This document shows positions 2,175 to 38,180 of a stretch of DNA of 39,323 nt, in pieces. The translations under genes and the position numbers were made by a program. Origin of the DNA: Basidiobolus ranarum (lineage: Eukaryota); assembly GCA_040143965.1 (NCBI GenBank), contig JASJQH010006918.1, positions 1-39,323 on the forward strand. Direction: 5' to 3'. Each line of letters opens with the position of its first letter. The stretch's first letter is position 1. A model generated the notes under the pieces. The model worked only from the letters and a program-made list of their open reading frames with translations, made no database searches and was not told where the DNA came from.

Positions 2175-3213
2175 AATAAAGTTTGGTTGAAATAAAGGAA
2201 TAGAACAATATGAAATGGCTGGTGAAGAAATAACTCAACTTATAGTAAAGTCTAGTGAGAGGAGATGTACTTAAGTAACAGGTTCAATGGGAAAGAAATA
2301 ATTTGAATGATCTTCGAATGGATTCGGTTGGTTTATATTTATTAGCAAAAAAGTAAGGTGAATGATGTTATTACAGTTACTAAAATCCTAATTTCTCACT
2401 AAAATTTACTTTACCTTTTTTAACTGAAATTTTCTCCCTTTTTTGGGATATCGAAAATTGATCAAGCCGCAATGGTGACTTTTATAGAATGGAAATTTAT
2501 ATCAATCAATATATTATAACACCGATGCGATGATGTAGCTCATTCAGACGGGTTAAGGCGTTAGGCTCATGTTTACCAAGATCATTGACTATCGTACACT
2601 TATTTCGATAAGTAAACATTTGCTCCACATCGATCAATCAGATATCTCAGTGATGTCACCACTAGAAGATCTGGCAATCGATCCATTATGTATGGTTTTA
2701 TCTCCATGGTCAGGCAAAGCATTTAGAAACTGCTACATCAATGCTTCATACCATTAACTTCTGTAACTTCCACTCTCATTGTGGGGACCATACCTCAAAC
2801 GCCCATTCTTTCACACAGTAATGTACACGGCAAATCTACATTTCATTAATCCACCAATGGTTGAGTGTTCTTGGCTTGGATGAACTGCCACACATGCCAT
2901 ACACTCTCTATCCTCTTCTTGATAGTCCATCCGGTTTACTCCGGACATCGGATATTTCTACCATAGTAAGTAGTTCACGGTTAGTAATCCATTCGGCCTT
3001 CTTATACTCAGCTACTGTCAACATTCTTAGTCAACTGACGCTATCCTATCACGTGTTGAACACTGTATTAAATCTAGTGGGAGATACAAAGAAAGGGGAT
3101 CTAAATAGTATCTTCGTGTCATTTTGTTCTGGTATAATTGTAACTCGTGTCCTGCATAAGGTTTAACCCTTTTTATTGTTTACCAATCAATAAGTGTGAA
3201 CGAATGGGTGATA

Positions 3214-3236
3214 TAGGGTTAGGGTTAGGGCTAGGG
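3214..3236 (+). repeat. Short telomere-like (TTAGGG)n tract
   Basis: tagggttagggttagggctaggg in the intergenic region between the divergent kdsD-like and PRP46 genes. Confidence 0.6.
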
Positions 3237-15407: not shown

Positions 15408-18400
15408 ATGGATGGTGAGAGTGAGGACAGAAAAGCAAGGTTACTTCCTCCTACTGATGTTCGTGGTGCACTTAAGTACTGGCCTATGGCTTCCTTAACT
15501 CCTTCGTTCTCAAGTGCGTATAAATGAGATAAATTCACTCCTTCAAACATAATCTAATATTGCTTCTGAATTAGTAATAAAGGATATACCCTCGGTAAAG
15601 ATAGTGCACGATGAATTTACTTTATGTGCCCCTGGTGATACAGAATACGTGGATAATATATTACATTGTGGTTTGAATGAGGCCAACGGATATGTCGCTA
15701 CCATCGCTAATCTTTTAAACGAAGTTGACGCGTCATATTTGTAAGAAAGTGGTTTTTTTAAAAGGCGGTATATACATCTTACCCCTGTTTCTAAATCATA
15801 ACCTTTTCAACAGAAAATTCAAATCCTCCTGCATACCACCTTCCACTTTCCAACCAGAAAATGACCAAATACTGCCAACTGCACACCCACTAATGGCGAA
15901 GCTTATCATGGGTTATTGTCACCGCGATGGGGATGCTCCAGTACCCCCTGGTAATGTCAAACTTCCTCATTACCTACTTAACAATAGACCACTAAATGTC
16001 TTCCCATAATAGAATTGTATCAGCAGCAAATACCCAGTCATAATAATGCCTTCCGTTTCATACACAAGTTCAAAGACTCAAAAGTGGCTCTGGTTACTCA
16101 AGGAGATTCACTCCCCAAGCACGGTATTTCTGACATTTAATTTGATTATATCATAAAGTACACTCGCTAATATCAACAATATTGATGTTCAAGTTCCGGA
16201 TGTTAGCAAAGAAAAAAAACCGACCCCTCGACAAGAACCGTTAAGAAAGGATGTGATCCAAAACCATGTCAAGACTTCACCTCCAAATAAAAATAACAAA
16301 ATTCCTCCAAAGAGACAATCAGATTACAGCGAAAGCAAGAAAGCGATTAGTAATCCAGCAGAAGGTTGAAGATATTCATGATTGCTTATTTGTAAATAGA
16401 AACTTACCGCGTTTATCATTCTGTAATTCTAGCTGCGTTTACGAGATTAGTCGACTTTTTGGATGATATGTTTGCAGCAGATGATTCTCTCACCCCAGAT
16501 ACATCCATTTCGGAAGCGAATGCGGATGCTTACAAGTTTTTTATTCCATCGTCTATTTCTACGGACAATACACTGTTGACAAGAGAGACGATTTCTAGAG
16601 TGACTTTACTAATTAGCAAAGCTGCTCAATATAATAGGCTCGGCGATGTTAATGTAGAGGATTTTAGTAGACTCCTTAAAATCCTTGAGCGATCTGTTCG
16701 TGCAGCTGAGGATATAGATGTGTTCGCACCTAAACTCAATATTGATGATGAAGAATTGAATAGCGAACAACATCAACTCAATTTTGTAGAAGAGAAACTC
16801 GTAACTATCCAACATGGACTCGACGCGGCGATATGTGCATTCTCTCTTATGACTGGAGGTGCTCTAAGCCGGCAACTTTATCCTGAAGACATCATCATAT
16901 CAAGCCTCAATCTAGCCAAAAACCAGCTCAAAGGAACTTTGTTTACTATATTCGAGCTCTCAGATATAGATATCTCTGACCAATCTCTTGTTCAGAATGC
17001 AATGAAAAGCACCACAATTAAACGCCAGCTGAATTCACTTATTTTACCATTGACGACCTTCTTTAATAAGCTCTACTCCCTGATGCATATCCAAGAATTG
17101 TCGGATAGTGTCATGATCACTGTGGGATATTTTGCTGTTGCGCCGTTTTTCGTCGAAAGTTCTTCTATCCTTCCTGCTGGTTTGGAAGGCATTAAACTTG
17201 CCGCACTAGGACTTCTTCGATCTATCTTTACATGCTACCCAAATCAACGTACTTGGATATTAGAGGAGATTTTAACGTCTCTTATCAAATTGCCAACAAA
17301 CCGCCGTAACCTCCGACAGTACAAGTAGGGATTTTCCAGCAGAGATGGTCAAACGCGTTTAAATTTTAAATTTTTGTGTATTATAGACTTGCCGACGGTA
17401 AATCTATTCAGATGGTTTCCGCTCTACTCTTACAATTAATTCAATGCTGCACGGATCGTATTATCCGTAATGGATTCAGCAGCGATGAAGTAGAGAAAAT
17501 GGCCCAGAAAGAACCAGAAGAAGATGAACGTAACTTTCAGAAAACTCAGGCAGCTTTGCTGGAGAAGGTTATATCATTTCTATTTGTACCTATAAATAGC
17601 GTGTACAATTTCTAACCTTATTGACCAATATAACTGACAGTTTGGTGGACTTTGCAAAGGCGGACTTGACGCTGCCAATTTCAACGCCTCTTATATCTTC
17701 AAATATCTTCTTTCCAGGTAAGCCACTTTGAATTCGTTGATTCCCCGTAGCGATCAGTTTACTAAGAAAAAACAATCGATACGATAGATGTACAAAGAAC
17801 AAATCTTCTAATGAAGCAGAATATCGCGCACTCCTCGATAACTTTATGGAGGATGTTCTGACTGTACTCAACCTTCCGGAATGGCCTGGCGCTGAGCTTG
17901 TCATTCGGATCTTTAGCAAAATCATGGTAATATATATATACATTTGGTGCTACTATGCATGAGGCTCTAACATAGAGTATAGGTTGGATATATTGACGAC
18001 AAAAGGGCTGAAACATACACCAAGTCAATGGCGATCGACTACCTGGGAATTATAGCTGCCAAAATTAAGAAATCGATGAATTCCTTGATTCCAAAGAAAG
18101 AGGAAAGCGAAAATTTTGATTTAGGTAGCGAGCCTCAGGATATTAAACCACGATCTCTTCTTGAAATCCCTACGGGAGAGGTAATGAATTAATTACGATC
18201 TTTCCATCTTCTGTGTTAATGCTCAATGTATGCTGCTTGTAGATTACTGGTGACACTCCCCTCCAACCGATTCAAAATCTTGTACAGTACCAAAGGACAT
18301 TGTTGGACTACTTAGAAGTACTGGCCACAGAAGACCCCGGTATCGAGGTAAAGTAAAAGTATGAATCTCTTTGTACTGATCTTCATTAACTCACATTTCT

Positions 18401-21400
18401 GAGCATATAGTGTGCAAAACAATTTTATCTTTGCGATTGGGGAAATATCATGGCGGCCAATTTTGTTCAAGCCACAAAAGCAAGTCGACACGATGATAAC
18501 ACATGGGATCCAAATGTCATCAAAGAATTTTTCGATGTATTGAGAGAATTCGCATTGAACGGTTCCGACAGAGCAGAAAAAAGACGAGAGTATGCAGATA
18601 GTCTTGTTTCAGATTCGATTGTATTTTTATATTGACTTTGTATCTTATTTAAAAAGAAAAATCTCCGACCGACACACTATATTAATTGTTACAGAGCTAC
18701 TTGGTACTCGTCAAGGATTATACCAGAGCTTTGACGTCTTACTTTCGAAAATACTGGCTGCTTTAGAAATGTCCGTCGTAGCCTTCAGAACAAAAGCTTT
18801 GAAAGCGTTAGGTCAAGTGGTAGTCTCTCATCCCGAAATTCTAAGCCAGGTATATTGCTTTTGTACTTTTACTCAACAAAACCATGATGCTAATACCTCT
18901 TGGAAAGGTCAATGTACGTCACACTATAGGTAATCGTTTGCAGGATTTATCACCTGCTGTACGTGATGCTGCCATCGACTTGGTTGGCAGATACCTCTCT
19001 CAAAAGCCAGAAATTACCCAACAGTACTATAAAGTTATTAGTGAGCGGATTTTGGTAATTTCCTTTCGCTACCTCAGATTTTATTCATTTTTAACACTCT
19101 TCCTGATTATTAGGATACTGGCCTGAACGTTCGTAAAAGAGTTATTAAGTTATTACGCGAGATATATCTTAAAAGCGAAGATCATGACATGATGGTGGAT
19201 ATTTCTTTCAAGTTCTTGAATCGTGTGAATGATGAGGATTCTAATGTTAAGGTAAATGCTCATAGAACTGTAGCACTAGAATCTAGTAAGATGTCTTATG
19301 CAAAAGGATAATTTTAGGAATTGGCCTTAAAGACCCTCCAAGAAATCTGGTTCGGGCCGTTCAAATGCCAGTCCAGTGGACTCTTTGAGTTGGATGAATT
19401 ATCCCCTGATCAATATCAGAGTCTTATGTTCTCGAAAATGACCGTCACCGGCAAGAAAGAGGTTTTGGCTCGTACTTTGATTATGGTAGATGTAGTCAAG
19501 ATGCTTAGTGCCAGTGGGGGTGAGAGTTTGGGCGTCCTAATCCAAAAAGTAATGTACTTGCTCAAGTATTTCTTTGCCTAACAACATTTAATTAATGCAA
19601 TTCATTAGATTATCGAGAAAAGCGAAGGAAAGGTCAAACGAGGAATAACTACCATATGTCAATGTATGGTGGATTGCTTGATTGAACACCTTCTGTCGGT
19701 TGAGGAAGATAACTCCAAAGTAAGTGCACTTGTTGTATTCGAATTCCAATATTACTATACTTATACAACCATTTAGGGCTCCGTGGTTCATTGTATCAAT
19801 GCACTATACCTCTTTAGCAAGGCAGCTCCAGAGCTATTAGTTGATCACGTCACCGTCCTTCATCCATATACAAAAGCGTCTACTTCGGTAAAAGAAAAGA
19901 CACCTCCTGTAGTCTCCATACTATTGAAGATGAAGTTAACGATTTGCATTTATTAGGCTGAGGATCAAAAGATTCTTTATTTTGTTTTGATGATATATTC
20001 CAACTCTGTGCCTTTATTGAAGAACCCGGATCCTGCATTTCTTCAAGGCCTTGAGCAGGAGCTATTTACTTTACTATCAAAGAGTTCACAGATGGTCAGT
20101 ATGAATACCCTTGTTTCAAAGTTTTATGGATCCTTATAAATATGTTGTTTCTCAGGTACTATTGGTAGTTGTTCCTTGCTTGTGTGCAATTGTAGATCGA
20201 CTGACACATAACTATGTCCGCCTCTCAAAATTATTGCGATCATGTTCAGGTACGAGAAAGTTACCATAGCATTCATGAATACAGATTAACATGTTGCTGT
20301 AGCCAAGCTTACTACCGAGATTGAACGCGTCAAAGATGGTCTTGAATTAAGCTCCCCAAGAAATGTTGTTCGCTTACTTATGATTCTAGGATTACTTTGC
20401 AAGCACTTCAATTATGACAAGAAAAGACATGACATACCAGGTAAAGAAACTTCTTTATGACTATTGGTAAATATTTTATTGAAATTAATTCCATTTTTTC
20501 GTTAGAGGCTCAATCGGACTTGGATAGCATCCATAAAGTACATTCAAGTTATATCTATCAACTTGATCTGTTTACTTATTTACCATCGAAAAAATTAGGG
20601 TCCTATTCTCCCGTATATGTTTGAGCTTATCATGTCATTTGCTTCCGCAAAACTTCACTCCAATATTCTTATAGTAGCACTCCAAAGTTTAGGTTGGTAC
20701 TTTACTATATTCATCAGATTGATACGGACTCTCCTCATTGATGAACTTCTCCAGGATTTATCTACATGACTCAACCCAAGTTGATGCTCGCTGAATCAAG
20801 TCGACTTTTAATGGGAAATATCTTTGAATCCAATTCTATTGAGCTTAAGATTCAGTTATTGAAAGTTTACTTGGATTTCCTCTTGGCCGAGCAAAAGAAT
20901 TCGGAGCTTCTGGAAAAAGGTAAAATGACAAAAACTTCGGTGACCTTGGTTTGAATTACAATCTAAGCTTCCGCATTAGAACATGACAAAGATGCTCCGG
21001 TCGATATCAAAGTCTTGGTAGGAAACGCTGAAGAGCTTGGTGAAGCAGGGTAATAGCATTCGTATAATTATTTCGTGAATAGTTATTAATGACTTTTTCG
21101 ATGTAATAGTGTAAGCAGCTCCCTCATGCAGTGCTACCTTGATAGAATCCTTGATTGTATGCTCTCAGAACAAAACACTTTGAGGCTATTATCTCTTGAT
21201 GTTGTCAGCCAAATTATTCAACAAGGCTTGGTACATCCACTTAAGGTTTGTTCATACACGTTTTATATATTTCATGAGATATGTTTAACCTTTCAATCTG
21301 CTCTTAACTCCACAGTGCGTTCCAGCGATTGTTGCGCTGGAAACTGGTCACGAGAAAGTCTTGCGAGAAAAAGCGTATAAAATGCATTGCCATCTAAATG

Positions 21401-22645
21401 AAAAGTATCCTTCGTTTATACACTCGCGAAATGTTGATGCCGTAAGAACTGCATACGACTACCAAAAGCAGATAACCAAGGATAAACCGATTATAGGTAC
21501 TTCACCTATATTTACTCTATTCTTGACTGTATTCTCACCATAACTCATTGAACCAGGCTATGATATCGTTAAGATTGATTCAAAACCGGAAGCTCTATTA
21601 AACTCCATGTACACACTTGTGAAGGAGAAACGACAGCGTAGACACGACTTTCTAAAGTCGCTAATCAAGTCATTTGACTTTGATCTCGAAAGAACTACCG
21701 ACTCTGCGGTACGTCTTGATCGACAAGTAAAGCATGATCATTCCTCTAACTAAAAATGTAATCTATAGGTTGACCCCGGATTTTGTAAGTTTGTCTGCGA
21801 GAACCTTTCGGTTTTAAACTACAAAACTCTGGAAGAGGTTTTGTATCTGATATATGCTATTAATCAAGTACTCTCTGTCACTGGAACCAATGTTATGCAT
21901 CAAATGGAGCTACAGTCGCGAAATAGTGATGGTATGCAAATATGAAGATATACTATTTATTTCTCCCGTTGATATCATTTTGTATTAACCCCATTCACTT
22001 GCTAGTTCCAGATAAAAAGTTCAAGGTCTATTGTAAAGTAGCTGTCTGTATGGGCCTTTTGATAATCCTCAAGGAGTATCTAAAGGGGGCTTTCTCACTA
22101 AATGAAGCGTATGTATTACTACGAATTGCTAGTATCTATTTATTCTAATTACAAAAAATGTTTTTAGGAAATGTCAGAGCTTCAATCCCTCTGACTCTGG
22201 ACATAAAGATAAGCCAGCTTTCCGGCAACCACGAGCAATCCAACCAATATCATGGGATAGACTTATGCTTCCTACTAATTTATCCGATAAGAATGTCGAT
22301 CTTAAACAAACAAGTGAAAAGGTAATTAGATAGAACTTACTTGAATGGGAAAAAAATTCATCGAACTTACAATATATACAGTTTTACGAGCTCATGAATG
22401 AAAGCGGCTCCGTCGCTGACTACCATGACGACGCTGAATCGGTAGACCTTGACGATAGCCTGGAATTTGAAGCGACTAGCGACACCTCACCAACTATGAA
22501 GCCTAACCAACGTAATAAATTAAAGCCAGTCAAAAAGGCACTCGGTGCACGTAACAATCCTCCTAAAGTAAAAAAGCGATCTGTTGAAGAAAGCGAACCC
22601 ACCTTTATTATGGAAAGTGGATGGAAGCGGCCAAAAAAGTATTAG
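15408..22645 (+). CDS. SCC2: Cohesin loader Scc2/NIPBL/Mis4, about 30 short introns
   Basis: QRTWILEEILTSLIKLP, GKSIQMVSALLLQLIQ, DVLTVLNLPEWPGAEL, FRTKALKALGQVV, DLSPAVRDAAIDLVG, DTGLNVRKRVIKLLREI, QQGLVHP. Start MDGESEDRK...ALKYWPMASLTP at 15408 is inferred. Confidence 0.92.
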
Positions 22646-23135
22646 GCATATTGATTTGAAATTACATATAGAATTATACATTTTCTATGCTCTTTGAACG
22701 TTGATAAATAATATTGCCTGTATATTTTCTTTTTTTCTGAAGCTTTTTGAAAATATTTTATCTTTGTATCTCTAGATTTGCTATGGCGTTCTTTATGCCT
22801 ACCTTCTTGCATTACCAACTAAATAAACCGAGAAACCAACAAATCTGTGGCATTTGTATCATGTATTAACGAACTTAATGTGGCGAAGATACTCGCGGTC
22901 TGAGATATACTATATCAATCAATATGCCATTCTACGCGATCAAAAATTGACTAATCAAGATGATTTATAAATTCTTTTAATAAATTTTCGATTATACAAA
23001 TTATATTTTTACATTCAAAACTACTTATTTTCTACAGGGGGCCTATTACCCCACGCGTAACAGTTCAAGATTGATTTAAACAGGGGTGTATGGAGATGTA
23101 TTTTTTTTTGCATCTAGAGATGATTCAAATCAGCA

Positions 23136-23143
23136 TATAAATA
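23136..23143 (+). promoter_or_regulatory. TATA box of the snoRNA host gene
   Basis: TATAAATA about 30 nt before a pyrimidine-rich initiator-like stretch (cttactcacactctca) and about 85 nt before the first 5' splice site. Confidence 0.55.
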
Positions 23144-23265
23144 TCATGGCTGAGCAGTAATCATGCCTTACTCACACTCTCATCTCCAAAACATTTCTTA
23201 CCATTCTCAAGACGATGCACTCATAGGTAATTATCATATCATTTTCAAACTATCCCAGTTTCACT

Positions 23266-23344
23266 ATGATGATTAAGGCATTTGGCTGTAATCCTTCGGG
23301 ATACTGACGAAAATTTGACAGCTACCTAATTACGTCAATTCTGA
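23266..23344 (+). ncRNA. Box C/D snoRNA, snR13/U15-like, copy 1
   Basis: C box ATGATGA, guide AGGCATTTGGCT, hairpin atccTTCGggat, C'-like CTGACGA, GCTACCT, D box CTGA; terminal stem gtttc/gaaac. Confidence 0.9.
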
Positions 23345-23491
23345 GAAACATTTGAAAATACTCTGAGTTTTATAAATTTCCATCATCTAAACATTGTTAT
23401 TTTATCATTCAGGATTCAACGAGTGTCTTGACGTTTCTCGGTTGTACATACTCAAAACCAATGTAAGTTATATATCTCTTTATACTTCGCG

Positions 23492-23570
23492 ATGATGATT
23501 AAGGCATTTGGCTGTAATCCCTCGGGATACTGACGAAAAATAGACAGCTACCTAATTACGTCTTATCTGA
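23492..23570 (+). ncRNA. Box C/D snoRNA, snR13/U15-like, copy 2
   Basis: Same 79-nt C-to-D core; variants CTCG loop, aaatagac, gtcttatCTGA. Confidence 0.9.
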
Positions 23571-23733
23571 GCACCAACTCATATATAATCCCTAAGTATT
23601 ATTTATTCACATACAATTCTCATTTTTAGAGTTCTACTGTAAAATAATCCGACTTCCACTCAACCACTTTCTACCTCATCCTCGTACATACACCCACTAG
23701 GTAATTACAAATTCATTTAAAGTTTCATGTAAA

Positions 23734-23812
23734 ATGATGATTAAGGCATTTGGCTGTAATCCTCCGGGATACTGACGAAAACTTGACAGCTACCTAATTA
23801 CGTCAATTCTGA
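23734..23812 (+). ncRNA. Box C/D snoRNA, snR13/U15-like, copy 3
   Basis: Same core; terminal stem gtttcatg/catgaaac. Confidence 0.9.
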
Positions 23813-23964
23813 TTTCATGAAACATTTAAAGTACAATATATATAGTTCTCTTTCTAATTGTTACTCTTAGACTTTATACATACATATATAATAATTCAAA
23901 CCTGTACTCTTGGGCTCTTCCTACCTCACCGGTGAGTTATTTTCCAGTATCTTACGTTGTTTAA

Positions 23965-24043
23965 ATGATGATTAAGGCATTTGGCTGTAATCCCTCGGGA
24001 TACTGACGAAAACTTGACAGCTACCTAATTACGTCAATTCTGA
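23965..24043 (+). ncRNA. Box C/D snoRNA, snR13/U15-like, copy 4
   Basis: Same core; external stem cgttg/caacg. Confidence 0.9.
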
Positions 24044-24191
24044 TATTCAACGAAAATTTTATTACTTTTTCAAACTTGTTACTAAACTACTTTATTAGAT
24101 TCTCACCATGATCCTTACCTAGTTGTCCACTTTAATGAATTTCAAAACGTGAAATGGTAAGAATTTTACTCAATTCAATCCGGTTGTTTAG

Positions 24192-24270
24192 ATGATGATT
24201 AAGGCATTTGGCTGTAATCCTTTGGGATACTGACGAAAACTTGACAGCTACCTAATTACGTCTTATCTGA
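24192..24270 (+). ncRNA. Box C/D snoRNA, snR13/U15-like, copy 5
   Basis: Same core; TTTG loop; external stem gttg/caac. Confidence 0.9.
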
Positions 24271-24416
24271 TATTCAACAAACTTTTCATTTCCTTGCAAT
24301 CTTTTACTAAATTATTCTATCAGGCTTTCGCATATATATCTTTCACCTATAGCCGTTCACGTTACAGTGTTTCTAATTATAATGGTAAGCATTGTTTGCT
24401 GTTTGATGTTGTCTAG

Positions 24417-24495
24417 ATGATGATTAAGGCATTTGGCTGTAATCCTTTGGGATACTGACGAAAATTTGACAGCTACCTAATTACGTCTTATCTGA
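24417..24495 (+). ncRNA. Box C/D snoRNA, snR13/U15-like, copy 6
   Basis: Same core; TTTG loop; external stem gttg/caac. Confidence 0.9.
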
Positions 24496-24649
24496 TATTC
24501 AACGAACCATTGACTTTTTTTGCAATTTTGTATTAATTTCTTCTATCAGAAGTTACAACATGAGCTTACACTGCCCCGCTCTATCGGAATGCCTCTACAT
24601 TGCTATATGATGGTAGGTTTTATTCTTGATATTCAAGTATATCAACTAA

Positions 24650-24728
24650 ATGATGATTAAGGCATTTGGCTGTAATCCTTCGGGATACTGACGAAAACTT
24701 GACAGCTACCTAATTACGTCAATTCTGA
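24650..24728 (+). ncRNA. Box C/D snoRNA, snR13/U15-like, copy 7
   Basis: Same core; perfect 11-bp terminal stem gtatatcaact/agttgatatac. Confidence 0.9.
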
Positions 24729-24874
24729 TAAAGTTGATATACATTGATTTTCGAAAAAATTCCATTCTAACAGTTCTGCTCAGTTAGATTCTGTTGACCA
24801 TATCTTACAGTCGCTGTATTGGGCAGGATTCTTGTACACAAACAGTAAGTTAACATTCATTTAATGTAATTGCA

Positions 24875-24953
24875 ATGATGATCAAGGCATTTGGCTGTAA
24901 TCCTTCGGGGTACTGACGAAAAATAGACAGCTACCTAATTACGTCTTATCTGA
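24875..24953 (+). ncRNA. Box C/D snoRNA, snR13/U15-like, copy 8
   Basis: Same core with private substitutions (atgatgatCaagg; gggGtac giving a U-G pair in the hairpin); stem taattgc/gcagtta. Confidence 0.9.
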
Positions 24954-25087
24954 GCAGTTAATTACCTATATTTTATTGAAGTCCATTATTAACATTCCAC
25001 TAGTTTCTTCAATATTGTTTAGATACAACCACCTTATGAAGCTCCATATTACTAGGTAATTTGAAATTCATATCCTGTTCGTGTAAA

Positions 25088-25166
25088 ATGATGATTAAGG
25101 CATTTGGCTGTAATCCCTCGGGATACTGACGAAAATTTGACAGCTACCTAATTACGTCTTATCTGA
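25088..25166 (+). ncRNA. Box C/D snoRNA, snR13/U15-like, copy 9
   Basis: Same core; stem gtgtaa/ttacat. Confidence 0.9.
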
Positions 25167-25525
25167 TTACATCTCATGCTATATTTTCTAGAAATATCTT
25201 ATTTATCTTACTGTTCTCTATAGGTCTGCATTCGTTGTAAATAAATCTCTTTCAGCATCCAATATCATATTTCATTTAGTTTGTTTATTTAAAGTATCAA
25301 CTTGAGTTTTTAAATTCATTTATCACCATGTATTGCTAGTTCTTGACTATTATTCATAGTTACGGTGAATGCTTCATATATCTATATATATATATATAGA
25401 ATAGTAAATTAGCTTTAGTGATTGCAGATAAATCTTCTCAATGAAGGTTATAAATTGCTTTTCATCATTCTTGTTACTATACGATTAAAATGTTGTCAGT
25501 AATTCTGGGGAATCAACATGAACAT

Positions 25526-31458: not shown

Positions 31459-33372
31459 TTAATCCAATTCTTCAACAGTTGGTTCACTACCTGGGAATCT
31501 TTCTGGGGTTGAAGGAGTAGCTCCAGAGGCTCCACCAGTGGTCTGGTACATCTTAGTCATAATGGGATTGGCGATACCTTCCAACTCCTTTTGCTTTTCT
31601 TTGTACTCCTCCTTAGAAGCTTCTTGACTCGCGTCTAACCAGCTGATGGTACTATTGATAACCTCTTCTAGTTTCTTTTTGTCATCCGCTTCCAATTGAT
31701 CAGTAACCTTCTCATCTTGAAGTGTGTTCCGAAGTGAGTAGGCATAGGATTCAAGTCCATTCTTAGCAGAGATACGAGAAGCAACCTCTTCATCCTCAGT
31801 CTTATACTTCTCAGCTTCGGAGATCATACGTTCAATATCCTCTTTAGAAAGACGTCCTTTATCATTGGTAATGGTAATCCTATTGGAACGACCGGTAGTT
31901 TTATCCAGAGCAGATACATTCAAGATACCATTAGCGTCAATATCGAATGTAACCTCAATTTGGGGAACCCCACGAGGGGCTGGGGGAATTCCAGAGAGTT
32001 CAAACTTACCAAGAATATCATTATCTCTGGTGCGAGCACGTTCACCTTGAAATACTTGAATCAATACGCCAGGTTGATTATCAGCATAGGTAGAGAAGAT
32101 TTCGGATTTCTTGGCAGGAACAGTGGTATTTCTTTTGATCAAAGGAGTCATCACTCCACCTGCAGTTTCAATACCCAATGAGAGTGGAGTTATATCGATT
32201 AAGAGTAAATCTTGAGTCTTCTCGGAGGTATCTCCAGACAGAATAGCTGCTTGAACAGCAGCTCCGTAGGCGACTGCCTCATCGGGGTTGATGGATTTGT
32301 TGGGTATCTTACCATTAAAGTAGTCAGAAACGAGTTTTTGAATCTTAGGTATACGAGTGGATCCACCCACGAGAACGATCTCGTGAACGTTAGCTTTATC
32401 TATCTTCGAATCACGAAGAACCTTCTCAACAGGATCTATAGTGGAGCGAAATAAATCTTGGCAAAGTTCCTCGAATCTAGCACGTGTTAAGGAGGTATAG
32501 AAGTCAACACCTTCGAATAAAGAGTCAATTTCGATGGATGTTTGAGCGATAGATGAGAGAGCTCTCTTGGCACGCTCGCAAGCAGTTCTGAGACGACGAA
32601 GAGCACGAGGATTGTCAGATAAATCTTTCTTGTTTTTACGCTTGAACTCCTGGGCAAAGTGATTAACAAGACGGTTGTCAAAATCTTCTCCTCCCAAGTG
32701 GGTATCACCAGCAGTGGCTTTAACTTCAAAAATACCATCTTCAATAGTTAAAAGAGAGACATCAAAGGTACCTCCACCAAGATCGAAGATGAGAACATTC
32801 TTCTCACCGCTGGATTTTTGATCAAGGCCATAAGCAATGGCAGCAGCAGTAGGTTCGTTAATGATACGAAGAACATTCATACCAGCAATAGCACCAGCAT
32901 CCTTAGTAGCTTGACGTTGAGAGTCATTAAAGTAGGCTGGAACAGTGACAACAGCGTTCTTAACTTCAGTACCAAGGTAGGCTTCCGCTGTCTTTTTCAT
33001 CTTAAGTAAGATCATGGAAGAGATTTCTTCAGGAGTAAAGGTTTTTGTTTCTCCTTTGTAATCGACTTGGATCAGCGGCTTGGTATCCTTGTCAACAACC
33101 TTGAAAGGCCAATGCTTCATATCAGATTGGACTTCCGAGTCGTTGAAACGGCGACCGATGAGGCGCTTGGCATCGAAAACACTGTTGGTGGGGTTCATGG
33201 CGACTTGGTTTTTGGCGGCATCACCTATAAGACGCTCCGAGTCATTGAAGGCGACGTAGGATGGGGTAGTTCTATTACCTTGATCATTGGCAATGATCTC
33301 AACACGATCATTTTGCCAGACGCCGACACAAGAGTAAGTGGTGCCCAAATCAATTCCGACAGCTTTAGACAT
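31459..33372 (-). CDS. HSP70: Cytosolic Hsp70 (SSA-type), intronless
   Basis: 637 aa with [21 protein letters not shown] and [12 protein letters not shown]-terminus EPTVEELD. Confidence 0.97.
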
Positions 33373-34280: not shown

Positions 34281-35150
34281 ATGACAGTTCAAAGATATAT
34301 TACGAGTAAAGTCGAGGCTATTGCTCAATCCGAAGGAGATGGTGCTCGAGTTAGAAGAAGTATTGGAACTAGTGCACTCGAAAATTTTGACCCTTTCTTA
34401 ATGCTTGATGAATTTATGGTCGAGCCTCCTGCGGGATTTCCAGATCACCCCCATCGTGGTTTTGAGACAGTTACGTATATGCTCGACGGAATAGTCGCTC
34501 ACGAAGATTTCGCAGGTCATCAAGGTAAGATTGGACCCGGAGATCTTCAATGGATGACTGCCGGTCGTGGTATTGTGCATGCGGAGATGCCACAAACTAA
34601 GTGCCGAGGCCTTCAACTATGGGTCAATCTTAGTGCCGTTGATAAAATGTGTGAGCCACGTTACCAGGAGCTCTTGGACAAAGATATTCCAAGAGTATCA
34701 CCACCAGGGGTTAATGCAGTGATCAAGGTGATTGCTGGAAATTCCTTTGGAGTCAGCAGTCCCGTAGTTACCAAAACGCCGACCATGTATCTTGACTTTA
34801 AGGTAGGCAAGAACTCCAAATTTGAGCAGATCATCCCAGAGAGTTTCCAAGGCTTCCTTTATATACTGGAAGGGGAAGGATACTTTGGTTCCAAAAATAC
34901 ACTAGGGAAAGCACACTACACACTGACACTCAGCGAAGAGGGTGGCACAATCAGCATAGAGACCAAGGAGAGGTCAGTTCATTTTGTACTTGTAGCTGGT
35001 GAGCCGATCAAGGAACCAATTGTTCAATATGGGCCATTTGTCATGAATCATGCGAGTGATATCCAACGCACATTTATCGACTACCGTATGGGAATTAATG
35101 GCTTCGAGCGAGCCCGTACATGGCGTTCAAAGATTGGAAATCGTCATTAA
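34281..35150 (+). CDS. Pirin (iron-binding bicupin), intronless
   Basis: DPFLMLDEF, GFPDHPHRGFETVTY, QWMTAGRGIVHAE, GLQLWVNL, EPIVQYGPFVMN. Confidence 0.95.
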   Translation: MTVQRYITSKVEAIAQSEGDGARVRRSIGTSALENFDPFLMLDEFMVEPPAGFPDHPHRGFETVTYMLDGIVAHEDFAGHQGKIGPGDLQWMTAGRGIVHAEMPQTKCRGLQLWVNLSAVDKMCEPRYQELLDKDIPRVSPPGVNAVIKVIAGNSFGVSSPVVTKTPTMYLDFKVGKNSKFEQIIPESFQGFLYILEGEGYFGSKNTLGKAHYTLTLSEEGGTISIETKERSVHFVLVAGEPIKEPIVQYGPFVMNHASDIQRTFIDYRMGINGFERARTWRSKIGNRH

Positions 35151-35397: not shown

Positions 35398-35469
35398 GCC
35401 TGCTTAGCGCAGTGGTAGCGCGTCAGTCTCGTAAACTGAAGGTCGCCAGTTCAATCCCGGCAGTAGGCA
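35398..35469 (+). tRNA. tRNA-Thr(CGU)
   Basis: Cloverleaf: acceptor GCCTGCT/AGTAGGC, D arm GCGC/GCGC, anticodon arm TCAGT-CTCGTAA-ACTGA, T loop TTCAATC, one A52-C62 mismatch. Pol III terminator TTTTT follows. Confidence 0.88.
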
Positions 35470-36602: not shown

Positions 36603-38180
36603 ATGAATCCACGTATACGTTATTCCCTTACCGACCTTGAAAATCAATACTACAACCAAGGGAACAAAAAGCCCTTGGAAGACCTGGTCAGGGCATTCCA
36701 AGGTATTCAAAAACTTCCCCCCACCGACCCGAATTCATTCTTCGTAATTGGTGGTTACCATGGTGAGCCTTTCAGAGGCGCGGGCTGGGGAAGTTCACAG
36801 TGGTGGGGAGGTTACTGTAATCATGGCAATGTTCTCTTCCCCACTTGGCACCGCGCATATTGCCTACGGATCGAACAAGCTTTACAAAGTATTCCAGGTT
36901 GTGAAGATGTGATGCTTCCATTCTGGGATGAGGCCTCAGAAGATCCTCAGCTTCTCGGTGTGCCAACTATTCCAAGTATCCTAACCCAAGAAACATTCGA
37001 ACTCGATAATGTTACGATCAATAATCCTCTTAAAAGTTATAGTTTCCAACAAAGCATTACCAGTAATGTGGCCACGACCCCGGGAGTCCCAAATCCTAAC
37101 TACAGCAAGAATCTAGGATATACGACTGTGCGATATCCGCTGTCTGGACTGGTGGGCACTGAGAAGGATCGAAAAGAAACAGAGATACACAACGCTCAAT
37201 TCAAGGACCCTGTCGAAAATGTTCGCCTTCTCAATGAGAATGTTCATGATTGGCTGACTGGTGGTATCGTGATGCCGGATGGTTACCAGCCAAAATTCAC
37301 GATTGAAAAGTATAGGAGATCTCTCGACGCCCCAAATTACACAGTGTTTTCCAACACTACCTCATCTCAACAATGGAATCAAGATCGTACGGATGCTCTT
37401 GTAAATGTTCCACTCGAGAGCCCACATAATGATATCCATCTTGCTGTTGGCGGCTTTGATATCAAGGATATCTCTGACGCCAGCCCCATCTCAGGTGCCA
37501 ACGGTGACATGGGGGAGAACGATACTGCGGGCCTTGATCCTATCTTCTTCTTCCATCATGCGTTCGTCGATCGCGTCTTTTGGCTCTGGCAGAAGAAGCA
37601 TAATAAAACTGATGACCTGGATATCATTGATGCGTATCCTGGAACAAATTCTGTGGACAGCCAGGGACCAACACCAGGGGTAGCAGGTGGTACCTGGCTC
37701 ACTCTTGATTCTGCTCTTGCTCCTTTCAAAAAACTAGATGGTTCTGGTCAACCGATGACTTCGAACGACGTGGTCAATATCGAAACTCAACTAGGTTACA
37801 CATACGGCCCTGGATCTCTAGAGAAGTTACCTGAGAAAACCCCAAGTGATGTATCTCCCGATAAGATGTTGCGCGTTGCAAATATCAATCGTGGTGCCAT
37901 TGGTGGATCGTTCATGGTATCCGTTTGGGCTACAAAGGACGGTAAAGATCACTTAGTGGGAACAGAGTCTATCCTTAGCCGCTGGAATGTTAGTGGTTGC
38001 GCCAACTGTCAGGCTCATCTCGACGTGAAAGTGTTCTTGGAGATACCCAGAGTGCTCGAAGATGCGACCGAATTCAAATCTCGTCTACATACGCGCAAGA
38101 TCGCCAGCAATGAACTTACGAGACCTCTGGATCCACCAATAACAGATGTGGTGCATAAAATATCTAATCTCCCAGGCTAA
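36603..38180 (+). CDS. Tyrosinase (type-3 copper) with C-terminal shielding domain, intronless
   Basis: CuA site YHGEPF...YCNHGNVLFPTWHRAY, CuB site ESPHNDIHLAVGG...DPIFFFHHAFVD, YTY motif and C-terminal CANC. Confidence 0.93.
   Translation: MNPRIRYSLTDLENQYYNQGNKKPLEDLVRAFQGIQKLPPTDPNSFFVIGGYHGEPFRGAGWGSSQWWGGYCNHGNVLFPTWHRAYCLRIEQALQSIPGCEDVMLPFWDEASEDPQLLGVPTIPSILTQETFELDNVTINNPLKSYSFQQSITSNVATTPGVPNPNYSKNLGYTTVRYPLSGLVGTEKDRKETEIHNAQFKDPVENVRLLNENVHDWLTGGIVMPDGYQPKFTIEKYRRSLDAPNYTVFSNTTSSQQWNQDRTDALVNVPLESPHNDIHLAVGGFDIKDISDASPISGANGDMGENDTAGLDPIFFFHHAFVDRVFWLWQKKHNKTDDLDIIDAYPGTNSVDSQGPTPGVAGGTWLTLDSALAPFKKLDGSGQPMTSNDVVNIETQLGYTYGPGSLEKLPEKTPSDVSPDKMLRVANINRGAIGGSFMVSVWATKDGKDHLVGTESILSRWNVSGCANCQAHLDVKVFLEIPRVLEDATEFKSRLHTRKIASNELTRPLDPPITDVVHKISNLPG

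Follow-up and report, generated by a model that had tools for sequence, protein, structure and literature searches.

A putative non-coding host gene carrying one copy of an snR13-type box C/D snoRNA in each of nine predicted introns

What is the product of a locus in which the same box C/D snoRNA core recurs nine times in a row, and by what route would so many copies of one RNA be released? The window, by which we mean the whole stretch of 39,323 nt that was analyzed, contains nine cores of exactly 79 nt each on the + strand. A regular expression and blastn-short agreed on these nine, and across the 39,323-nt window neither method found a further core on the - strand or elsewhere. The array of 79-nt units spans positions 23266-25166 (+ strand). 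In a repeat search, the start-to-start spacings of the nine direct copies were 226, 242, 231, 227, 225, 233, 225, and 213 nt. An earlier note on this DNA had described a 79-nt core repeated nine times about 210-240 bp apart, and the nine exact cores with a spacing of 213-242 nt agree with that description.

The cores were delimited from box C to box D, and all are read from the + strand: copy 1 at 23266-23344, copy 2 at 23492-23570, copy 3 at 23734-23812, copy 4 at 23965-24043, copy 5 at 24192-24270, copy 6 at 24417-24495, copy 7 at 24650-24728, copy 8 at 24875-24953, and copy 9 at 25088-25166. Pairwise identity among the nine cores is 90-99%, with a mean of 95%. Ten of the 79 columns vary (positions 9, 30-32, 36, 49, 51, and 72-74), and all ten fall in the hairpin loop, at a wobble-tolerant stem position, or in spacers; box C, the guide, the C' and D' boxes, the second conserved element, and box D are free of variation. 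The most diverged core is that of copy 8, with private changes at positions 9 and 36, of which the latter, from A to G, retains the hairpin pair as G-U. The stretch just upstream of box D occurs in two forms, AATT and TTAT. Two sites of the core show all four variant combinations, which makes the variants mosaic; beside selection, gene conversion may thus contribute to the uniformity of the cores.

Box C (ATGATGA) and box D (CTGA) are invariant in 9/9 copies. The candidate D' box (CUGUA) and the candidate C' box (CUGACGA), with a 4-bp hairpin between them, are also invariant in all nine but degenerate; in the relatives described below, their positions are retained. The CTGA that follows the hairpin was considered as D' and rejected; it fits C' (CUGACGA) better, and the relatives carry UGAUGA at this place. 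The terminal stems differ in sequence from copy to copy, and each pairs with its own partner: the mean pairing energy of the flanks is -6.31 kcal/mol for the cognate combinations vs -2.55 kcal/mol in 72 non-cognate combinations (permutation p = 0.0001). The cognate terminal stem of copy 1 has -5.5 kcal/mol, and the external stems of copies 3 and 7 are 8 bp (-9.8 kcal/mol) and 11 bp (-13.3 kcal/mol) long, respectively. In copy 2 the terminal stem is almost absent, its -2.5 kcal/mol being the weakest among the nine.

The earlier note had also proposed a search with Rfam, naming the snR13 and SNORD15 models; the RNA was not recognized. There was no match in the window at the gathering thresholds. 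At E values of up to 10, for the array as well as for a single copy, Rfam returned no match to the snR13 or SNORD15 model, and only weak, unrelated C/D families (SNORD11, snR61, Afu_263, and others) appeared, with 8-24 bits.

The sequence around the cores points to splicing. Pairwise identity is 63% in the intron flanks, compared to 56-59% after shuffling, and 52% in the inter-intron "exons", compared to 50% after shuffling. In the nine-unit alignment, the invariant columns of the 5' flank are the G-T-A of the proposed donor plus one T only. In each unit, 29-39 nt separate the upstream GTA donor from box C, and another 53-69 nt separate box D from a downstream, pyrimidine-rich YAG; each GT...YAG interval encloses one snoRNA copy (9/9). 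The predicted introns, 165-186 nt long and all on the + strand, are intron 1 at 23227-23412 (186 nt; donor GTAATT, acceptor TTCAG), intron 2 at 23463-23629 (167 nt; GTAAGT, TTTAG), intron 3 at 23701-23870 (170 nt; GTAATT, with CTAAT 17 nt before the acceptor CTTAG), intron 4 at 23932-24098 (167 nt; GTGAGT, with CTAAA 17 nt before ATTAG), intron 5 at 24157-24323 (167 nt; GTAAGA, with CTAAA 17 nt before ATCAG), and intron 6 at 24385-24549 (165 nt; GTAAGC, with TTAAT 17 nt before ATCAG). Intron 7 at 24613-24787 (about 175 nt; donor GTAGGT) has a branch-like CTAAC and an ambiguous acceptor at 24773, 24787, or 24810; intron 8 at 24845-25022 (about 178 nt; donor GTAAGT) has a branch-like TTAAC and an acceptor at either 25003 or 25022. 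Intron 9 follows at 25056-25223 (168 nt; donor GTAATT, acceptor CTATAG). A YTAAH branch-like motif precedes the chosen acceptor in 7/9 introns, and its distance is exactly 17 nt in copies 3-6.

We compared these motifs with shuffled sequences (5000 shuffles). A GT[AG][AG][GT] donor 25-42 nt upstream of box C occurs in 9/9 units, whereas the shuffles gave 0.9 on average and at most 5. A pyrimidine-preceded YAG 45-75 nt downstream is likewise present in 9/9 (shuffles: mean 2.8, maximum 7). Both counts are generous, as the motifs were defined after seeing the data and the units are homologous; signals common to the nine units are thus not nine independent observations. Scored against all GT or AG sites with matrices trained on the neighboring SCC2 gene, the splice sites reached only moderately high values, in the 84th-98th percentile for the donors and in the 84th-99.9th for the acceptors. 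The SCC2 introns used for training were themselves predicted by a dynamic programme and are noisy, several being 40-nt "introns" at the minimum length allowed; the percentile scores are weak evidence, since the training set is approximate. SCC2 has about 27 such predicted short introns with a median of 56 nt, and 20/27 start with GTA, which suggests that this genome splices sites of the proposed kind. An unrestricted enumeration of introns was discarded because it produced too many false candidates. The claim that a GT donor and a YAG acceptor surround every copy thus stands at the level of sequence in 9/9 units.

The proposed host gene extends over positions 23136-25262 of the + strand, with the TATA box at one end and the poly(A) signal just before the other; it has 10 exons, 9 introns, and predicted ends. 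The candidate TATA box, TATAAATA, is at 23136-23143 (+ strand), and transcription is assumed to start about 30 nt downstream of it; the candidate poly(A) signal, AATAAA, is at 25240-25245 (+ strand) in the last exon, exon 10, which begins at 25224. The two elements are those that the earlier note had placed upstream and downstream of the array. Its description of the region as ORF-free also held: there is no ORF of at least 100 aa overlapping the array region. The longest ATG ORF in the model spliced RNA of about 550 nt is 51 aa. For an unexplained ORF of 244 aa that adjoins the array, ESM Atlas returned no usable match. The note had given the exons as 50-70 nt long and divergent; the predicted exons measure 33-71 nt and are unrelated to one another, with an identity near that of shuffled sequence, so they are indeed short and divergent. 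In our view the locus is probably a non-coding host of the UHG type, with ten short exons and, in each intron, one snoRNA of the snR13 type.

The nine snoRNAs could instead be processed from a polycistronic precursor that is never spliced, by RNase III-type cuts between the units followed by exonuclease trimming, as in the snR72-78 cluster of yeast or in plants. The tandem, closely spaced copies on one strand behind a single upstream TATA box would suit such a precursor, clusters of this type exist in fungi and plants (excerpts of PMC2780460), and an RNase III-type enzyme might in principle cleave at the external stem of each unit. However, the spacers have no excess of structure (z -1.0 to +0.8 in 8/8 spacers), what is invariant in the flank is the GTA of a donor plus one T, and donor and acceptor motifs occur at fixed distances in 9/9 units. 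The single-copy relatives also look intronic by eye, as is Neurospora CD1 according to a table in PMC2780460. We regard unspliced processing as unlikely.

Splicing as such would also be compatible with an array that belongs to SCC2, as an intron-bearing 3' extension of its transcript created by read-through or by an alternative 3' UTR. SCC2 is on the same strand, and only about 490 nt separate the end of its last long reading frame, at 22645, from the TATA box. However, an AATAAA is present between the two, at 22979, and TATAAATA is found directly upstream of exon 1; furthermore, the hosts of this type known from fungi are, in the excerpts of PMC2780460, non-coding genes in their own right. 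An extension of SCC2 is in our estimate improbable, and less probable than the unspliced precursor. A separate host gene remains the preferred reading.

Still less probable are nine mini-genes, each transcribed from a promoter in its own spacer. Yeast snR13 is an independent gene and not intronic, the spacers are AT-rich, and some contain TATA-like strings, including TATAAA at 23371. This is the only TATAAA within the array, though; the spacers lack a common sequence (52% identity vs 50% when shuffled), and with about 30 nt between box C and the conserved GTA, the 5' flank looks more like part of an intron than like a promoter. The earlier note had used budding-yeast snR13 for comparison. This choice did not hold up: a budding-yeast context was ruled out, the genome being intron-rich and Basidiobolus-like (its HSP70 is 89-93% identical), so the relevant yardstick is provided by intronic homologues, of which Neurospora CD1 is an example.

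The least credible explanation, and a very improbable one, is that the array is an artefact of assembly or a repeat in decay or without function, such as a satellite or an array of pseudogenes: Rfam does not recognize the RNA and the contig is only 39 kb, but the cores are conserved between flanks saturated with change, the variation spares every functional element, the terminal stems are compensatory, and every unit has unique flanks, unlike the product of a repeat collapse or expansion, which speaks against an artefact. Tandem Repeats Finder called only copies 4-7 as tandem, with 80% match; this partial call suggests old, diverged units rather than an assembly artefact.

Returning to the host gene with nine snoRNA-bearing introns, we asked which RNA the common guide would recognize. 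An LSU rDNA locus from the metagenomes (L047), which Rfam identifies as eukaryotic LSU rRNA with 687.8 bits, was used as the target in place of the rRNA of the host. The guide, AGGCATTTGGCT, has a 12-nt Watson-Crick match to this locus, or 14 nt with G-U pairs, and the 12-nt match is the longest between the whole core and the locus. If D' is CUGU(A), the third A of the CCAAAT run is the nucleotide at the fifth position; this register hinges on the assignment of D'. Excerpts of PMC5389607 state that yeast snR13 guides L2280 and L2281, and the table in PMC2780460 lists Neurospora CD1 as an intronic snR13 homologue with a D' guide for 26S-Am2242. The predicted target of the guide is the LSU site of snR13, equivalent to yeast L2280/L2281, with the identity of the site taken from the literature. 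The suggestion of a clear, snR13-type rRNA target is thus supported by the 12-nt match and by the snR13 site as given in the excerpted parts of these two papers.

The second conserved element (GCUACCU...) contains GCTACC, which pairs with a GGTAGC that overlaps the guide target by 3 nt. Against the same LSU locus this pairing is 7 nt only, and its energy is barely better than that of shuffles (fraction 0.04). For snR13, excerpts of PMC3116282 describe an accessory guide whose rRNA target overlaps that of the guide. The earlier note had called the array single-guide. This is correct in that there is one main guide; it overlooks the candidate accessory pairing element, which is snR13-like.

From these elements we infer the following course of events. 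One Pol II transcript, from about 23166 to about 25262, would comprise ten short exons and nine introns, and each intron would contain one copy of the same box C/D snoRNA, which is putatively orthologous to snR13 of yeast and to CD1 of Neurospora. With the help of each copy's external stem, the C/D kink-turn would be bound by the core snoRNP proteins. Splicing would free the lariat, and debranching and exonuclease trimming would leave a mature RNA of about 85-95 nt. The box-C-proximal guide would pair with the conserved LSU helix-69/71 region and target for 2'-O-methylation the adenosines that correspond to A2280/A2281 in the 25S rRNA of yeast, while the GCUACCU... element would act as an accessory pairing region adjoining the methylation site. 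The nine copies would presumably serve dosage.

A metagenome scan that required both conserved elements gave no matches, and hence no close relative. A looser metagenome scan, for box C plus the guide, found at least 120 loci. The 120 loci listed comprise 46 from one gut bacterial gene, 46 others that are mostly chance matches, 12 from antisense LSU rDNA, and 16 that were flagged as relatives. One of the flagged loci (L037) looks like a chance match and was set aside, leaving 15 single-copy relatives among the 120 loci listed. Their elements follow the order box C, the same guide, a CU-initial D', a variable hairpin, C', GCTACC, and box D. In the 15 relatives among the loci listed, D' is CUUUA or CUUGA. 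A 12-row alignment has GCTACC in common between three copies from the window and eight relatives; it is missing in L035, a possible relative that lacks this element. Judged by eye, the single-copy relatives have a GT donor 60-90 nt upstream and look intronic. None of the 16 flagged loci matched Rfam at gathering scores, and a literature search returned no paper that meaningfully links snoRNAs with Basidiobolus.

The RNA resembles snR13 and CD1 in its D'-side guide, which is complementary to the same LSU site. Its candidate D' box is, as in snR13, unusual, CU-initial, and extended (CUGUA here, (C)UCGA in yeast according to excerpts of PMC5389607), and its second conserved element may pair with rRNA beside or overlapping the guide target; with Neurospora CD1 it has in common a location in an intron, predicted here. 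In contrast to the single copy of snR13 or CD1, there are nine tandem copies here. The core is 79 nt long, compared to 124-125 nt for yeast snR13 and, in the table of PMC2780460, for Neurospora CD1. The accessory pairing is only 7 nt here, and the failure of Rfam to recognize the RNA is a further difference from snR13.

As a host gene, the locus is similar to the UHG-like hosts (mammalian UHG and GAS5, Drosophila Uhg, Neurospora clusters I-V), which likewise have one snoRNA per intron, short exons, and short ORFs. Excerpts of PMC2780460 describe Neurospora clusters I-V as UHG-like non-coding hosts with only short ORFs of 159-267 bp, and of the C/D snoRNAs expressed in Drosophila, 42% come from seven Uhg lncRNA hosts (excerpts of PMC11014333). 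These hosts contain different snoRNAs or few isoforms, whereas all nine introns here carry the same guide; splicing is verified for them and predicted from sequence signals here. The polycistronic clusters of yeasts and plants and the intronic clusters of rice are comparable in that several snoRNAs come from one transcription unit and that they expand by local duplication (excerpts of PMC2780460). In those clusters, however, a precursor or intron contains several snoRNAs that are freed by endonuclease cuts, whereas here a separate donor and acceptor flank every copy, and there are no hairpins in the spacers.

In layout, the closest parallel to repeated exon-intron units with the same C/D snoRNA in each intron is provided by the eutherian arrays (SNORD116/115, SNORD113/114, and rat Bsr/RBII-36). 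The earlier note had drawn the parallel to SNORD115/116 and added that the rRNA target is clear here; the repeated units and the LSU match bear out both parts. The eutherian arrays show signs of gene conversion and subfamilies (excerpts of PMC11028025), to which the AATT/TTAT forms and the mosaic core variants correspond here. According to the same excerpts, they are recent, specific to eutherians, orphan (without an rRNA target), and imprinted, and they have tens to hundreds of copies. The present array differs in being fungal, in having nine copies, in its age (the flanks are saturated), and in its predicted canonical, conserved rRNA target.

The ingredients are already known, as UHG-like hosts in fungi and as SNORD116-type tandem intronic arrays in eutherians. 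What appears to be new is the combination: a canonical rRNA guide amplified nine-fold, with one copy per intron, in an early-diverging fungus. We are evenly divided on the larger claim that this is the first tandem one-per-intron C/D array outside eutherians and the first with a canonical, deeply conserved rRNA guide (snR13 type), an old "inside-out" gene whose exons have drifted to random and whose nine cores are held by selection and gene conversion. A 2024 review suggests, in the excerpts of PMC11028025, that understudied genomes might hold more tandem intronic snoRNA repeats. If the claim is true, an architecture like that of SNORD116 can have an independent origin and requires neither imprinting nor orphan function; nine units of an ordinary rRNA guide would untie this architecture from imprinting and from non-canonical targets, and would show that it can last until no similarity is left among the exons. 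The array would also offer a simple system for asking why so many copies of a single methylation guide are needed, in what way intronic arrays are shaped by selection and gene conversion, and how the position of a snoRNA in short introns (29-39 nt from the donor, 53-69 nt from the acceptor) relates to processing. The known range of the snR13 family, which is marked by an odd D' box and an accessory guide, would grow to include a Basidiobolus-like lineage.

The region on the side of box D was compared to the same LSU locus. Its best match covers 8 nt, at an unrelated place, and 7 nt match next to the guide site; the duplex energies are only marginally better than those of shuffles. Immediately upstream of box D, and accompanied by the AATT/TTAT forms, is the invariant, lineage-specific TAATTACGTC, which may be a second guide for another target.

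The interval 23136-25260 (forward strand) contains nine direct repeats, which start 213-242 nt from one another. A regular expression and blastn-short each returned exactly nine 79-nt cores (ATGATGA to CTGA) on the forward strand, and neither detected further copies or relics of the core elsewhere in the 39,323-nt window; the nine-fold, regularly spaced core described in the earlier note was confirmed. Ten of the 79 core columns vary (positions 9, 30-32, 36, 49, 51, and 72-74, counted from box C to box D). The mean pairwise identity is 95% for the cores, 63% for the intron flanks (56-59% when shuffled), and 52% for the segments between the introns (50% when shuffled). Tandem Repeats Finder detected the array for copies 4-7 only. 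Because the cores are conserved, the flanks have diverged, and the repeat finder recognizes only these four copies, the array is real and old. Exons at random-level identity, and intron flanks nearly so, next to cores held at 95% argue for strong selection on the cores. The hairpin-loop variants (TTCG or CTCG) are found in all four pairings with the variants of the three bases before box D (AAT or TTA), which suggests that copies have recombined or undergone gene conversion with one another, or else that mutations have recurred. Gene conversion between copies was likewise inferred for SNORD115/116 (PMC11028025).

Every copy begins with box C (AUGAUGA), followed directly by a 3-nt spacer and the invariant, guide-bearing stretch AAGGCAUUUGGCU. 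CUGUA occupies the place of D'; it is followed by a short hairpin (UCC-NNNN-GGA), whose variation is confined to the loop or is wobble-compatible, by CUGACGA in the place of C', an A-rich spacer, a second invariant stretch (ACAGCUACCUAAUUACGUC), three variable nucleotides, and finally box D (CUGA). Judged from its sequence, the core follows the canonical order C, guide, D', loop, C', second region, D. The stretch TAATTACGTC does not vary among the nine copies and is absent from the Dikarya-like relatives. The helices outside boxes C and D vary in sequence from copy to copy, and the best partner of each flank is its own counterpart: cognate terminal stems average -6.31 kcal/mol versus -2.55 kcal/mol for the 72 non-cognate combinations (permutation p = 0.0001). 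The weak terminal stem of copy 2 is the exception. Compensatory terminal stems are a requirement of functional box C/D RNA. Several copies have minimum-energy folds in which the guide's 3' part, UUGGCUGU (core positions 17-24), pairs with ACAGCUA(CC) (positions 53-60), directly ahead of the accessory element; neither stretch varies among the nine copies. This internal helix could mask the guide; it was not seen in the metagenome relatives.

The guide was compared to L047, a metagenome locus of antisense LSU rDNA that was a chance return of a loose pattern scan, and which Rfam identifies as eukaryotic LSU rRNA (687.8 bits). The guide matches GTAGCCAAATGCCT over 12 nt by Watson-Crick pairing and over 14 nt with G-U pairs, the longest complementarity of the entire core to this sequence. 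The clear rRNA target claimed in the earlier note is borne out by this predicted pairing at the snR13 site, which we take to be equivalent to yeast L2280/L2281 and human 28S A3764 (SNORD15), based on rRNA numbering and the papers cited here. The region on the box D side had no other target within L047. In yeast, snR13 uses its D' guide to methylate L2280 and L2281; its D' box, given as UCGA or CUCGA, is unusual yet conserved, and it also carries an accessory guide (PMC5389607). The rRNA targets of its accessory region and guide overlap (PMC3116282). The Neurospora homologue CD1 is tabulated as intronic, with 26S-Am2242 as the target of its D' guide (PMC2780460). The RNA in the window resembles snR13 in the LSU site of its guide, in a D' starting with CU (CUGUA), and, more tentatively, in a candidate accessory element, GCUACCU, that could pair with AGGUAGC; this stretch adjoins the guide target on its 5' side, with a 3-nt overlap. 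The accessory pairing is weak, at 7 nt, with a duplex energy on L047 better than only 96% of shuffles. Rfam, proposed earlier as a check, recognized none of the window copies.

A scan of metagenome contigs demanding both conserved elements found nothing. A looser scan, for box C and then the guide within 0-8 nt, returned at least 120 loci. Of these 120, 46 belong to a single bacterial gene of gut metagenomes, another 46 were mostly chance matches, 12 were antisense LSU rDNA, and 16 were flagged as snoRNA relatives. One of the 16, L037, looks like a chance match; L035, which lacks GCTACC, is a possible further relative. None of the relative loci were recognized by Rfam. In an alignment of 12 sequences (three window copies, eight relatives, and L035), the element order is common to all, GCTACC is kept in 11, and the D'-C' hairpin is always present and varies in sequence and length. 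The 16 inspected loci (15 relatives and L035) each contain one guide core, and most relatives have, by eye, a GT donor 60-90 nt upstream and a branch-like site and AG downstream; elsewhere, therefore, the snoRNA is a single and apparently intronic gene. By chance, the gut bacterial gene (e.g., L004, L005, L009) contains box C and the 12-nt guide with 8 nt between them, and it yields false positives when snoRNAs are searched for by pattern. The 12 rDNA loci are eukaryotic LSU rDNA broken by foreign sequence that lies within the snR13 target region or directly adjoins it. In L017, L047, L056, L086, and L116 the foreign sequence begins just after ...GCCTCGTCATC; L027, L091, L096, L105, L111, L113, and L119 diverge past the GGTAGC/AAGG junction. 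L047 has a second insertion further 3'. These interruptions are likely rDNA-specific introns or mobile elements.

Upstream of the array lies an SCC2/Nipped-B gene (17302-22868, forward strand; Pfam PF12830 on the frame 21093-21380). A dynamic programme linked its many short frames by placing about 27 introns between them, all in all very short (median length 56 nt; the set is approximate), and 20/27 of these start with GTA. Owing to these introns, SCC2 appears in a bacterial-style ORF list only as fragments; the frame 16396-17328 may be its N-terminal exon. An intronless HSP70 (31459-33372, reverse strand) shares 89-93% identity with several HSP70s of Basidiobolus meristosporus, whereas full-length HSP70s (about 640-660 aa) from other fungi reach no more than 87%. 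Given the SCC2 introns and the HSP70 identities, we treat this as the genome of a Basidiobolus-like, early-diverging, intron-rich fungus, for which the budding-yeast comparison drawn earlier is not apt. The window makes up one complete contig of 39,323 nt.

Across the diverged 5' flank in the whole-unit alignment, no column is invariant apart from the G-T-A of the proposed donor and a single T. The donors (GTAATT in three units, GTAAGT in two, and GTAAGA, GTAAGC, GTGAGT, and GTAGGT) precede box C by 29-39 nt; the acceptors are YAG behind a pyrimidine-rich run, 53-69 nt past box D, and the predicted introns measure 165-186 nt. As proposed, candidate donor and acceptor motifs surround every copy (9/9 units each, versus means of 0.9 and 2.8 in shuffled flanks), with motifs defined post hoc and nine units that share one ancestor and are not independent observations. 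Seven of nine units have a YTAAH branch-like motif ahead of the chosen acceptor, at a distance of exactly 17 nt in copies 3-6. Scored with matrices trained on the SCC2 introns, the sites rank only between the 84th and 99.9th percentiles among all GT or AG sites, and introns 7 and 8 have ambiguous acceptors. Ten exons of 33-71 nt make up the model RNA, whose total length is about 550 nt. Its longest ATG ORF, 51 aa, is consistent with the non-coding host claimed, and falls within the range of ORFs in Neurospora UHG-like hosts (159-267 bp; PMC2780460). The upstream TATA box and downstream AATAAA of the earlier description correspond to the candidates TATAAATA at 23136 and AATAAA at 25240, both on the forward strand.

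We consider the array to be probably a spliced non-coding host with one snR13-type snoRNA per intron. A single Pol II transcript would be made, and core proteins would bind each C/D motif co-transcriptionally, aided by the external stem. Splicing would remove the nine introns; once their lariats had been debranched, exonucleases would trim them back as far as the snoRNP boundaries. The short spliced RNA would probably be discarded. The snoRNP would then direct methylation of one or more LSU adenosines in the helix-69/71 region. The main rival, a polycistronic precursor cut by endonucleases independently of splicing, is unlikely; secondary structure is not in excess in any of the eight spacers (z between -1.0 and +0.8), which speaks against it. 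That the array is a 3' extension of SCC2, which lies upstream on the same strand, is less probable still, and independent mini-genes would be a very improbable arrangement. A non-functional repeat or an artefact is the least probable reading: compensatory terminal stems would not persist in a decaying repeat, and the flanks unique to every unit led us to reject assembly duplication as the source of the array.

Non-coding snoRNA host genes with several introns have been described in fungi (Neurospora; PMC2780460), Drosophila (PMC11014333), and mammals, and eutherian genomes, the rat Bsr locus included, contain tandem exon-intron repeats with one and the same box C/D snoRNA in each (PMC11028025); both ingredients of the proposed array are thus known. 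A 2024 review characterizes such tandem arrays as recent, eutherian-specific, orphan, and imprinted, and suggests that understudied genomes may hold more (PMC11028025). The novelty in fungi suggested earlier holds insofar as the literature searched (titles, abstracts, and main texts of mostly open-access papers) did not describe any array of this kind with a canonical rRNA guide in fungi; its ingredients are not new, and these searches do not establish its absence from print. Titles and abstracts on snoRNAs and Basidiobolus gave nothing relevant, and the main text of a fungal snoRNAome paper mentions paralogues and contains neither "tandem" nor "copies".

Further along the window, an intronless tyrosinase gene (36603-38180, forward strand; 525 aa) has named matches that, among its best 120 relatives, are all bacterial, at 55-63% identity, and include Burkholderia, Nostoc, Bradyrhizobium, and Nannocystis. 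This gene is a candidate for bacterial-to-fungus transfer, or for a chimeric contig; horizontal transfer into Basidiobolus has reportedly been described. Between HSP70 and the tyrosinase lie an intronless Pirin gene (34281-35150) and a tRNA gene (35398-35469; Rfam, 65.9 bits), both on the forward strand. An interstitial run of telomere-like repeats, GGGTTAGGGTTAGGGCTAGGG, is located at about 3200-3234 on the forward strand.
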